Shown piece after piece: positions 21,001-24,000 of a stretch of DNA of 64,000 nucleotides. The first letter of the stretch is position 1. Every line of letters starts with the position of its first letter. Position numbers: made by a program. Origin of the DNA: Escherichia phage CMS-2020a; sequence record CP054387.1; one strand, written 5' to 3'.

Positions 21001-24000
21001 ATTTGCAGCACTTCCGAAAACACATTGTGCGTCGTATTGAGATAGCTCTTTTCTGAAACCTTCGACCATCTTGAGGAACAGTTCGTTATGCTGCGAGTAC
21101 TTGCCAGTTGCCAAATCAGCTTCGCCTTGCATCCAGACAACACCAAGAAATACATTCTTTTTGTTTTTACTTAAGGCCGCTTTTGTTCTGGCTACAATAT
21201 CCTTATACAAAGGAGTATTTAATCCCCATTTTAAAGATGATTCGATTGCACCTGACTCTTCATAATATTGGCCTTCAGAGCCTGTAACAGTGAAACCAGA
21301 ACCACCTCTTCCGCAAGGAACGAGCAAAATACCTGCGTTTGCTGGAATGAATGGTAATAGTTTTTTGCCAATGTGTAGTCCCTGACCAACACATCCATAT
21401 TCAGAGTCGTTTGCTTTTGGATGCTTGAATTTAGTCATGTCTTGTACATCATGAAGACAGTGATCAGCGGGAATTATTTCATTGTACTTACAGGCAAAAC
21501 CACCTGGTTTAATATTGCTGCGTCGAGCTAACTGTTTTACGCGAGGATGTGGCCGATCAAAAGTTTTTGGCATAGGCAGTCCTTCGCCGTATGACATTGA
21601 GTTGGATTGACCTGCGATAGTAACTACATAATAATAGTCAGGCTCTTCATCTTCATTTGATACCGGTGTGGGCAATTGTGATAAATCACCAGATCGCACA
21701 ATTGCTTGATTGTACGCATTTGGTCCGCCCTTACTTGGTTCAACAATGTTTGGTGACTCGAAAGGTTGCCAACCCTCTGCGATTTTCTCCGCAAGTTTTT
21801 CTCTAAGCTCTTTGCTTGATGATGCTGACAAAATATCATAGTCAATGAATGACATAATCGTTACTCCTTTAACGATAAACTTTAGCTAAAATCGTATCGA
21901 TTTTAGCAGTTAAAAAACGACAATAAAATATAAGAGTAATGTATGAAAGAACAATAAAAATTGCGTAAATGGATATGTGTAAAATATGTGGAATTTCACA
22001 CACAGCGTTGAGCGGTCTGGTTTATGTTAGCGGAGTCTTAATCGAGTTGATTAAAAGGCCAAACCGCTCAACGCTGTGTCTGGCGGAGAGTAATGGAATC
22101 GAACCATCATCGCTTGCGCAATGGGACGGTTTTCAAGACCGCTTGAGCACCATGCTCCCTACTCTCCAGTCGTTGTGGTTACCGGTACTGATCTCCGGCT
22201 TAGCGACCCCGGCTACTGACTGCATTGCAGTGTGTGAACTCGCCTCGTGTGTCGCTGGGGCATTTCTTTCCGCGCATCAGTCTGCGCATCAACCACAACG
22301 GAAAGAGCATTCACGTCTCGCGTGCCACCACGAATGGCAACTCAGAGAGTCGAACTCTGAAAATGTTCTTACCTGTTGTGCGCTCCGTTTCGTGGAGCTA
22401 ACGGCGGGTGAACAGGCCGCACCAGGTTGGACATATTTCAGCGTTATGCTGTTGCAAGAGAGCCAAATTGTGATGGTCGGCGCTGATCTCCGACACAGGG
22501 TTGTAGCAAGCCCCGCAAAGCGCGCACTACTGTAGTTGCGGCACATCAGCCTGTGCATTCACCACAATGTTGAGAACACTGGTTGTCACGCGGCAACGCA
22601 ACATTTATTCATAGATTGGGATATGACCCCGTTACGCCAATGTTCTCAATATTATGTTGGTGCCGATTAACGGGATCGAACCGATGACCATTCGCTTACA
22701 AAGCGACTGCTCTACCAACTGAGCTAAATCGGCAATTTGGTGGGGAGTGATGGAGTCGAACCACCCGAGTCGCAATGACAGTAGATTTACAGTCTACCCC
22801 GCTACCTCTACGGACTAACTCCCCTAAATTGGCGATGGTGGGTGGATTCGAACCACCGACCAGTTGGTTAACAGCCAACTGCTCTACCGCTGAGCTACAC
22901 CATCAATTCAGCACTGACAGTATTTATTACTCAACAGTGCCAATCGCGGCGGTGTTAGTTTCTGCCAGGAAACGCACCGCTACTTGCACTCTTCGTTAGT
23001 GCCAGACGCTTTCGACTTCGCTCAATAGAAGGCTAAATCTTTAAGTAGATGATGTTTCTGAGGACAGCACCTACTTTGTAATTTATACAATGTAATGTAT
23101 GGAATCATTTGTTGTGAAAACAGACACCAATGGCAACAGTGGTTAAACCTACACAACAATCCTGTCTTCACAACGTTGAGGCCACCACTCCGATTGAATG
23201 TTTGCCCAACATGTTACATATCAACGCTCGCCGGTATCTCTGTGAATAGAACCTTAGAATTGATAAAAATGTAATGGCCTCAACGTTGTGTGCTGGCTAA
23301 CCATACCAGCCGGGCTACGTCGCCGCTTTTTAACCCAGTATAAACGACATAATTGAACAAAATGACGTAACAGAATGGGCGGTCAGTGGCTAAGAATCCG
23401 GGAGTCATATGGAGTTGAAAATATACCGACCGCCCATTCTGTTACTTCATCGGAGGGAACACTCATGTTCCCTCCTGCGTTCTGCAATCACACTCGCTCA
23501 GTGTGTCCCATTTCGGTAACGAGGCTGGAAACTGACCTCGCTGGTGTTTGGCTTATTAGGCTACTGCCAGATAGACTTCTTCGTTTGCACTTGTATTTAA
23601 GTTCAAACAGTCGCGTCTCAACGAAAACAAAGTCATCTTATACATAGAAAATAAGTAAGTAAACACTTATTATTGTGTTTTTATTCGGTTGTGACTTTTT
23701 TGATCAAGGCCACTCTACGACTAGGTGTTCTTGTGATGGTGGCAGTGAATCGTTTCGCTTGGATAGTAATGGTTTCGTTCTCCTTAAGTTGCCCGTAGCG
23801 AGTTTCCACCAAGGTGCCAAGACGCCACAGACCATCATCGATACGTTTATGACTAGCAAATTTAATCAGCAACAGTTTTACGACTAACTGACCTACGTAA
23901 AAGGCGAATGCGACTCCGGCCGCTAAGAAATAGGTGACCAACCACCAGTCCCAAGAAGTTAAATTGCTCATTTTCTAACCTTTGTTTCATGAACTACCCG

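Follow-up and report, generated by a model that had tools for sequence, protein, structure and literature searches.

The tRNA gene cluster of Escherichia phage CMS-2020a (sequence record CP054387.1) is interrupted by a G+C-rich gap of about 490 base pairs (bp) between tRNA-Thr and tRNA-Ser, and the question that arises is what this gap encodes. In the window, by which we mean the whole 64,000-nucleotide (nt) stretch of DNA that was analysed, the gap lies at positions 22168-22657. A first-pass annotation had found no convincing open reading frame (ORF) there, and had suggested that the gap may hide either degenerate tRNAs or a non-coding RNA.

We find that the gap is very probably a conserved structured-RNA locus of a family built on what is here called the X-M scaffold. 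As to its identity and mechanism taken together, we lean on balance towards two tandem modular non-coding RNAs, with M domains of the STnc100/PasD superfamily, that are excised from a tRNA operon.

Two tandem X-M units on the minus strand

The scaffold that is repeated across loci reads S1 CACAACAGGUAAGAGCAUUG, insert 1, S2 CAGUGCUCUUUCCGUUGUGGUGAAUGCGCAGGCUGAUGCGC, insert 2, S3 GCCGGAGAUCAGCACCGGCCACCACAA. The X module arises from base-pairing between S1 and the 5' part of S2; it is a stem of 16-17 bp with one bulged A and one U.U, and it encloses a hypervariable insert. The M domain is laid out as a closing helix P2 (GUGGUG/CACCAC), the spacer AAU, a hairpin P3, a hypervariable arm (insert 2) and a hairpin P4, the last of these stacked directly on the 3' strand of P2, so that the topology is cloverleaf-like. 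The loops of P3 and P4 are complementary to each other over 5 bases (GCUGA with UCAGC). Two such units, A and then B, occupy the minus strand of the gap in tandem. Numbered along the tRNA strand, the gap starts with q1 at window position 22657. Its features are the following:

22470-22653, minus strand: unit A, with X stem 22637-22653/22566-22582, insert 1 at 22583-22636, and the M domain next
22617-22631, minus strand: hairpin CGGGGUCAUAUCCCA in insert 1 of unit A, the window copy of the motif ACGGGNYCAUAWYCC
22467-22568, minus strand: M domain 1, with P2 22560-22565/22470-22475, P3 22541-22556, variable arm 22494-22540 and P4 22477-22493
22378-22469, minus strand: linker and unit B leader, with hairpins GCGG-CCUGUUCAC-CCGC (22404-22420) and GCUCC-ACGAAAC-GGAGC (22382-22398)
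22175-22377, minus strand: unit B, with X stem 22362-22377/22297-22311, insert 1 at 22312-22361, and the M domain next
22312-22361, minus strand: three-hairpin insert of unit B, with CAGAG-UUCGACU-CUCUG at 22343-22359, a middle hairpin at 22323-22339 and a hairpin with loop CGAGA at 22312-22324
22172-22299, minus strand: M domain 2, with P2 22291-22296/22175-22180, P3 22272-22287, variable arm 22199-22271 and P4 22182-22198

The X stem of unit A is diverged, with 15/16 positions paired, and tRNA-Thr lies 4 nt upstream of it. The inverted TTGAGAACA copies recognized in the first-pass annotation are real and correspond to this stem (arms 22560-22582/22637-22659, 23 nt, 83% complementary). In unit B, the X stem has the canonical sequence, AACAGGUAAG.../...CUUUCCGUU, and is located directly 5' of the M domain. 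Two further elements from the same annotation also find their place here: the complementary segments 22171-22179 and 22292-22300 form the closing stem P2 of M domain 2, and the T-loop-like element is the hairpin CAGAG-UUCGACU-CUCUG, i.e. the first hairpin of insert 1 in unit B. The complementary loops are GCUGAU (22545-22550) and AUCAGC (22482-22487) in M domain 1, and ACUGAU (22276-22281) and AUCAGU (22187-22192) in M domain 2, so that the loop pair covaries between the two units. Both leader hairpins of unit B recur upstream of X in P1 and in the lambdoid loci L007-L010, and the stem of the first one covaries (GCGG/CCGC, GCCAG/CUGGC, GCUGG/CCAGC).

It should be pointed out that a forced-constraint fold of the whole gap had one helix mis-registered; its energy is not meaningful and only the coordinates were used. 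A hammerhead reading of CUGAUG in P3 was also considered and rejected, this sequence being the P3 loop and stem, which pairs with the P4 loop.

Comparative evidence for the structure and its strand

The pairing scheme was evaluated on an alignment, A1, of 74 distinct units from viral contigs, P1-type phages, UTI89 and the window, with the inserts stripped and without gaps. A standard pair is formed in 93.6% of the cells, compared with 33.8-54.8% when the partners are slid. Both sides are altered in 21 of the 37 pairs, against 8.3 ± 1.7 in shuffles (0/500 as high), and the covariation score is 0.157, as compared to 0.081 for shuffles and at most 0.060 for slid partners. Compensatory changes affect at least 3 pairs in each of five helices, including the loop-loop helix, which is 97.3% paired and alternates between GCUGA/UCAGC, GUCGA/UCGAC and ACUGA/UCAGU. 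Since G.U cells exceed A.C cells by 131 to 36, the structure belongs to the tRNA-sense strand.

A covariance model, R1, was built from 61 M domains of viral-contig loci; the window, its relatives of P1, D6 and CMS type and three loci whose inserts are similar were kept out of the training set. R1 finds M domain 2 (22172-22299) with 69.8 bits (E 2.7e-14) and M domain 1 (22467-22568) with 65.7 bits (E 2.4e-13), and has no other match at E<=10 in the 64 kb. These matches, the strand-specific and covarying conserved structure and the lack of a protein signature support the non-coding RNA alternative of the first-pass annotation. The search for known RNA families that it had proposed gave no relevant Rfam match in 22168-22657, the hits at the gathering threshold and at E<=10 being only noise such as miRNA and rydB models. 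To drop the RNA on this ground, as had been suggested, would wrongly discard the finding, because the family is absent from Rfam in this form.

We now turn to the other half of that suggestion, namely that the gap holds degenerate tRNA genes or tRNA pseudogenes. The gap does sit within a tRNA cluster, the M domain topology resembles a cloverleaf, and the T-arm at 22343-22359, with a 5-bp stem and the 7-nt loop UUCGACU, conforms to UUCRANY. However, neither ARAGORN nor the Rfam tRNA model (E<=10) finds a cloverleaf in 22168-22657, and the T-arm is part of a conserved three-hairpin insert in a 16-bp stem, not of a decaying cloverleaf. The elements are, moreover, under purifying and compensatory selection across many phages, which is unexpected for pseudogenes. 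The degenerate tRNAs are thus not borne out, and we regard this explanation as highly improbable.

A relative of the locus is found in phage P1, in which the region between trnT and tciA is 93% identical to q9-299. This region is part of the ban operon, which C1 controls, and lies on the tRNA strand, upl and plp being annotated on the opposite strand. In the P1 record (NC_005856.1, L001 2483-3052, plus strand), the two genes, upl (P1_gp073) and plp (P1_gp072), are homologous to window 22344-22649, and they run antisense to the structured-RNA units and to tRNA-Thr. This raises the alternative that the plus strand of the gap is protein-coding, as the P1 annotation has it: RefSeq has Upl (63 amino acids, aa) and Plp (125 aa) covering the P1 counterpart of the gap, and the Upl frame is open in the window. 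On the other hand, the 17 substitutions between the window and P1 in the Upl frame split 1/8/8 on codon positions 1/2/3, and the window lacks the Upl ATG. Plp is only 44 aa long in the window, and the P1 version extends antisense across tRNA-Thr. No Pfam family was found for either protein, and the Prokaryotic Genome Annotation Pipeline (PGAP) leaves the region blank in hundreds of plasmids. The first-pass statement that the gap has no convincing ORF therefore holds: neither of its two ORFs has a Pfam family, and their P1 equivalents are without a coding signature. A coding function is barely credible, and upl and plp are probably mis-annotations. Literature searches on P1 upl and plp returned no RNA interpretation of them. 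The present assignment gives a concrete, testable identity to a sequence that is blank in RefSeq and probably mis-annotated as upl and plp in P1.

The BLAST comparisons also reveal that the units are modular. The unit A block, q9-191, is met with by itself in other plasmids with 97-98% identity, the unit B block, q349-486, stands alone in others with 99.3% identity, and the breakpoints fall at unit borders (q9-191, q78-191, q349-486). The segment q208-387 matches lambdoid phages and prophages of Klebsiella, Enterobacter, Cronobacter and E. coli, in which the units are located between the Q antiterminator gene (just past tR') and the holin gene, on the same strand and often near tRNA genes. Between the same two tRNAs, relatives carry 8 nt (Cyrano), 224 nt (CMS-2020a) or 465 nt (D6), which amounts to no unit in Cyrano, one in CMS-2020a and several in D6, as also in P1.

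At this point one has to consider the alternative that the inverted repeats (CAYAAC...GUUGUGG...CCACAAC) are recombination or transposition sites, such as integron attC or miniature inverted-repeat transposable elements (MITEs), with the inserts as cargo and the RNA structure incidental. The presence/absence polymorphism of 0 to 3 units between the same tRNAs and the mosaic breakpoints at the conserved scaffold speak for it, and by sequence inspection the one-bulge hairpin, with its variable centre and AAC...GTT flanks, recalls attC. However, the flanks CAYAAC and GTTGTGG miss the attC consensus RYYYAAC/GTTRRRY, of which only AAC...GTT fits, and no integrase or transposase travels with the units, whose neighbours differ in P1, lambdoid and SSU5-like phages. 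Homologous recombination at the 40-nt conserved scaffold accounts for the mosaicism without a dedicated enzyme. The excess of G.U over A.C marks the transcribed tRNA strand, the covarying loop-loop helix and the four-way junction are tertiary features of RNA type, and the relatives are expressed small RNAs (PMC8550237). We consider a DNA element improbable.

The scaffold is found in P1, D6, SSU5-like phage-plasmids, lambdoid prophages and some lytic phages of Enterobacterales, always in non-coding slots. Its consensus occurs in 163 phage records, among them 73 from Klebsiella and 45 from Escherichia, the others including Salmonella, Enterobacter, Erwinia, Cronobacter, Hafnia, Pantoea and Stx (Shiga toxin) phages and several lytic phages. 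It is also present in 424 of 5426 complete E. coli genomes (~8%), nearly always unannotated; the unit in UTI89, for example, is flanked by a cI-like repressor gene and yfdP. With a curated covariance model, many spurious "hypothetical proteins" could be cleared from phage annotations. ORFs around the units are co-oriented with them in ~75% of cases, a noisy figure that counts in spurious ORFs. A scan of genome contigs with a degenerate 17-mer gave 3 true loci out of 120 (Serratia sp. Ag1, L239 and L247), the rest being chance matches, and offers no usable taxonomic census.

Two observations on neighbouring elements can be added. A minimal M-like variant of ~57 nt that lacks the variable arm, GUGAUGAAK-hairpin-CCAGA-AGAUAAGCA-UCUGG-CKUCAC (L001 2883-2940), follows an X cassette in P1, D6, Ro157 and Klebsiella pJN2-26 (in L314, between tRNA-Asn and tRNA-Ser); R1 gives it 10.5 bits. 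Furthermore, isrJ (RF01393) matches above its gathering threshold just after the Q gene and upstream of X-M units (L009 2393-2466 and L113 142-220), from which it follows that the late-leader region carries several small RNA elements in series.

Proposed expression from a tRNA operon and possible role of the inserts

The region is identical to that in plasmid unnamed1 of E. coli O104:H4 FDAARGOS_348 (NZ_CP022085.2, 110 kb). This phage-plasmid is of the SSU5/pHCM2-like type, and its genes include those for a DnaB-like helicase, a DNA ligase and an integrase as well as a CobT-like gene. RefSeq annotates all four tRNA genes on that plasmid and leaves the interval from tRNA-Thr to tRNA-Ser blank. 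ARAGORN places the same four tRNAs that had been folded by hand in the first-pass annotation on the minus strand, and the contrast in base composition noted there is also reproduced, with 0.52-0.57 G+C in the gap against 0.29-0.45 in the flanks. The elements that surround the two units are:

22830-22904, minus strand: tRNA-Asn (GUU), first in the cluster (ARAGORN; Rfam tRNA 75.5 bits)
22738-22824, minus strand: tRNA-Tyr (GUA) (ARAGORN; Rfam tRNA 43.5 bits)
22658-22733, minus strand: tRNA-Thr (UGU) (ARAGORN; Rfam 66.2 bits), 3' end 4 nt ahead of the unit A X stem
22081-22167, minus strand: tRNA-Ser (UGA) (ARAGORN; RefSeq tRNA-Ser), 5' end 7 nt past the P2 3' strand of M domain 2
21997-22082, minus strand: long hairpin abutting the 3' end of tRNA-Ser, arms 21997-22020/22059-22082, 38-nt loop, -46.8 kcal/mol

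Rfam at the gathering threshold confirms 3 of the 4 tRNAs, i.e. all but tRNA-Ser. This class II tRNA-Ser(UGA) is absent from the Rfam tRNA listing, and in clan competition it reaches 44.6 bits on the tRNA-Sec model (gathering 47). In the D6 record (MF356679.1, L004 2524-3229), tRNAscan-SE assigns no amino acid to the corresponding tRNA-Ser, and tRNA-Ser, tRNA-Thr and tRNA-Asn are put on the strand opposite to that given by ARAGORN and Rfam.

The arrangement that we favour by a modest degree, in a judgement that covers the whole explanation including its mechanism, is a single minus-strand RNA operon in the order tRNA-Asn, tRNA-Tyr, tRNA-Thr, unit A, unit B, tRNA-Ser. In the 17 loci that combine units with tRNAs, all tRNAs are on the unit strand and none is opposite. 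The 5' end of a tRNA falls 7-13 nt past the 3' strand of P2 in six contexts (7 nt in the window), and the 3' end of a tRNA falls 4 nt ahead of X in two, including the window. When no tRNA follows the M domain, there is a single-stranded stretch and then an intrinsic terminator, as in PasD. The agreement in strand, the spacing of the tRNA ends and the terminator in the absence of a following tRNA thus suggest that the units are co-transcribed with the tRNAs and freed by tRNA processing. For P1, 'upl' is among the upregulated features of the P1vir transcriptome (PMC8201110), which means that the homologous region is transcribed there, on one strand or the other.

In the mechanism that we propose, the units would be transcribed together with the tRNAs on the minus strand and then released by the nucleases that mature the tRNAs. 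RNase P, cutting at the 5' end of tRNA-Ser, would leave 7 nt past M domain 2, 3' processing of tRNA-Thr would take place 4 nt ahead of the X stem of unit A, and RNase III or RNase E could possibly cut at the long X stem. The conserved scaffold would provide a stable core that proteins can recognise, while specificity would be carried by the hypervariable arms and the flanking single strands, either through base-pairing with targets as in PasD or through binding of host factors. The released units would in this way act in trans via their variable parts. What the analysis establishes is the structure, its strand, its family, its modularity and its association with tRNA genes; transcription from this replicon, the route of processing and the action in trans are inferred. 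Such a mechanism would make the tRNA clusters of phages RNA operons of mixed content, with the tRNAs doubling as processing punctuation for regulatory RNAs.

As to the ends of the operon, the only sigma-70-like promoter match upstream of tRNA-Asn is at 23089-23118 on the minus strand (TTCACA-18-TACATT), ~185 nt away; its fit to the consensus is weak and its frequency is no higher than in shuffles. The inverted repeat that abuts tRNA-Ser, described in the first-pass annotation as having a 17-bp stem, is indeed present, but it is longer than claimed, the repeat finder giving arms of 24 nt that are 92% complementary. This hairpin has no U-tract, and it may be the end of the RNA operon or a processing site. 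A search for terminator-like sites on the minus strand of 21700-23700 found none. The Klebsiella SSU5-like phage pJN2-26 has a hairpin with an identical stem and another loop just downstream of tRNA-Ser (L314 683-769, minus strand), and the pair is a further example of a stem that is kept while the loop varies. The hairpin was also considered as a third X module, but this was dropped, since its BLAST similarity to unit A is not significant.

The inserts themselves are highly diverse. In 77 units there are 46 classes of insert 1 and 44 classes of insert 2, with lengths of 12-242 nt, and a canonical T-arm is present in about one quarter of the insert-1 classes. The three-hairpin insert of unit B is a fixed module, found in 64 loci in 17 variants; its T-stem covaries (CAGAG/CUCUG, UAGAG/CUCUA, CAGGG/CCCUG) and its middle hairpin keeps its shape but not its sequence. 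The motif ACGGGNYCAUAWYCC, represented in insert 1 of unit A, is 124-fold enriched on the same strand within 500 nt of scaffold anchors. In its extended form, ACGGGNYCAUAWYCC(A)AUC, it is enclosed by a covarying outer stem, and copies are also seen in L131 (~4232-4255), in L010 (~2870-2905) and in inserts of L015 and L030. We take this hairpin to resemble the anticodon stem-loop of initiator tRNA (tRNA-fMet); among the phage tRNA-Met(CAU) genes of related loci, examined as a reference for the initiator anticodon arm, none is initiator-like. One class of insert 2, present in 8 of the 77 units (e.g. L036 4600-4646 and L047 1953-1999, plus 6 others), matches nt 237-283 (helix 11) of the bacterial small-subunit (SSU) rRNA model with 31.5 bits (E 2.3e-5), and its stem shows compensatory changes. 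Finally, a 170-nt X insert in L027 has a sub-threshold match to Hammerhead_1 at 384-430, of 28.7 bits (gathering 34, E 0.0065).

These findings raise the alternative that the RNAs are mimics or decoys, the scaffold being a display frame whose hypervariable inserts imitate the tRNA elbow, the initiator-tRNA anticodon stem-loop and 16S helix 11, and thereby titrate or mislead tRNA-targeting defence nucleases, synthetases, ribosomal proteins or RNase P. The helix-11-type class with its compensatory changes, the frequency of the T-arm and the enrichment of the CAU motif beside scaffolds all argue in this direction, and so does the number of insert classes, a diversity reminiscent of an arms race. 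The units also share slots with phage tRNA genes, which are known counter-defence tools. On the other side, the majority of insert classes show no resemblance to anything known, the likeness to tRNA-fMet is tentative, and no partner protein is conserved beside the units. In the window, moreover, the inserts have no identified model apart from the T-arm and the CAU hairpin, and PasD, the relative that has been studied, acts via base-pairing. The resemblances to the T-arm, 16S rRNA, the initiator-like hairpin and the hammerhead are leads for a mimicry function and not proofs, and we judge this alternative, its targets included, to be unlikely although of some weight.

A more far-reaching version, which we hold to be doubtful and put forward tentatively, is that the X-M scaffold constitutes a phage 'RNA display' system. 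In it, a conserved, nuclease-resistant and tRNA-shaped frame would be excised from tRNA or late operons by tRNA-processing enzymes, and its two insertion sites, diversified and shuffled among phages, would expose imitations of host RNAs (the elbow of tRNA, the anticodon stem-loop of the initiator, helix 11 of 16S rRNA and perhaps small ribozymes) as decoys or hijackers of host defence or translation factors. If true, this would be a programmable RNA-level module for counter-defence or takeover in the phage tRNA gene niche, and should the inserts turn out to mimic host RNAs functionally, they would represent a new mode of phage-host conflict.

Relation to known RNAs

The preferred reading, i.e. 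two modular RNAs excised from a tRNA operon, can be compared with several known systems. GOLLD and ROOL are structured phage RNAs whose function is unknown and that often adjoin tRNA genes; they are, however, large compared to the much smaller modular units here, and their hosts differ from the Enterobacterales hosts of X-M. Their Rfam models have no match in the window, whether at the gathering threshold or at E<=10. In YrlA (RF02553), the hairpins of the permuted tRNA-like domain come in the same order as those of the insert of unit B, where a long closing stem leads to a T-arm and then to two more hairpins. RF02553 gives no match on this insert at E<=10, only 15.2 bits (E 6.8) over the real tRNA genes, and E. 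coli is not known to have a Ro/Rsr partner. YrlA and mascRNA/MALAT1 are both tRNA-like modules, and tRNA-like elements that function as processing signals offer a model for the proposed excision route. The tRNA cluster of T4 contains the stable RNAs 'species 1 and 2' (rnaC and rnaD), which are not tRNAs and are freed from precursors shared with tRNAs by tRNA-processing enzymes. They are single small RNAs, in contrast to the modular hypervariable scaffold here.

The closest relationship is to STnc100, a prophage small RNA of unknown function located downstream of stx2 and elsewhere in late regions (PMC12370729), for which Zhu, Shabalina and Storz describe structural homology to PasD (bioRxiv 10.64898/2026.05.13.724894). 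With 23.8 bits, the STnc100 model of Rfam (RF02076) aligns to a stretch of Cronobacter phage ES2 (L008) that comprises a type-I M domain and the terminator downstream of it, and a variant M domain, which is the third unit in P1, D6, Ro157 and others, scores 30-40 bits on the model. R1, in turn, matches the third, STnc100-like unit of P1 with E 6e-6. STnc100 and the type-I M domain are built alike: inside the closing stem (G)YRUGGUG...CACCAYRC, the AAU leads to a 5' hairpin, after which come a variable middle and a 3' hairpin that directly adjoins the stem. They also share a niche, both being found in the late region of lambdoid phages and of Stx phages (PMC12370729; bioRxiv 10.64898/2026.05.13.724894). 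Unlike STnc100, the window copies have the mutually complementary loops GRCUGA and AGAUCAGNN, are each preceded by an X stem cassette, stand in tandem within a tRNA operon, and have neither the promoter-proximal 5' arm nor an intrinsic terminator.

PasD1 and PasD2 of enteropathogenic E. coli (EPEC), with the homologue EcOnc13 in enterohaemorrhagic E. coli (EHEC), are prophage small RNAs that adjoin Q and lysis genes. PasD1 (L313 1261-1433, EPEC) starts with GCAUGGUGAAU and a hairpin and closes with ...GGCGCCAUGC, after which come the seed and the terminator; it is an abundant, expressed and Hfq-dependent small RNA with mapped targets (PMC8550237). In contrast to the window units, PasD has a promoter of its own, and its structured domain is followed on the 3' side by a single-stranded seed and a terminator.

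It is important to note that a number of results weigh against the reading that we favour. The window has no match to RF02076 at E<=10 (the gathering threshold is 47 bits and relatives reach 23.8-39.6), and its units lack both the intrinsic terminator and an obvious counterpart of the 3' seed region of STnc100 and PasD. PasD1 was rejected as a direct member of the family and is an architectural relative only, as R1 does not match it at E<=10; because of this miss, the link to PasD rests on the shared architecture and on STnc100 as a bridge. Regarding the structure, several scaffold pairs are invariant, sequence conservation being high, and the covariation signal stems in part from related sequences. 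The folding energy of the gap does not differ significantly from that of shuffles (z = -1.28 for the tRNA strand, z = -1.85 for the opposite one), so that the case for above-chance structure rests on the comparative evidence and not on thermodynamics. Lastly, knock-down of the P1 region by CRISPR interference (CRISPRi) produced no plaque phenotype (PMC10695390), a result that fits an accessory role.

By its relation to STnc100 and PasD, the M domain is a divergent branch of the STnc100/PasD superfamily, although at the Rfam threshold the window copies fall outside the STnc100 family. A full-text literature search for the scaffold sequences gave no match, and we found no earlier account of the X cassette, of the contact between the two loops, of two hypervariable sites or of units standing in tandem in tRNA operons. 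The STnc100/PasD prophage small RNAs are thereby extended to a much larger family, whose defined core covaries, whose loops make a tertiary contact with each other and which has two sites for hypervariable inserts. The locus in the window is a modular, tandem form of this known but poorly understood phage small RNA, with a structure that is well supported and a function that we infer.

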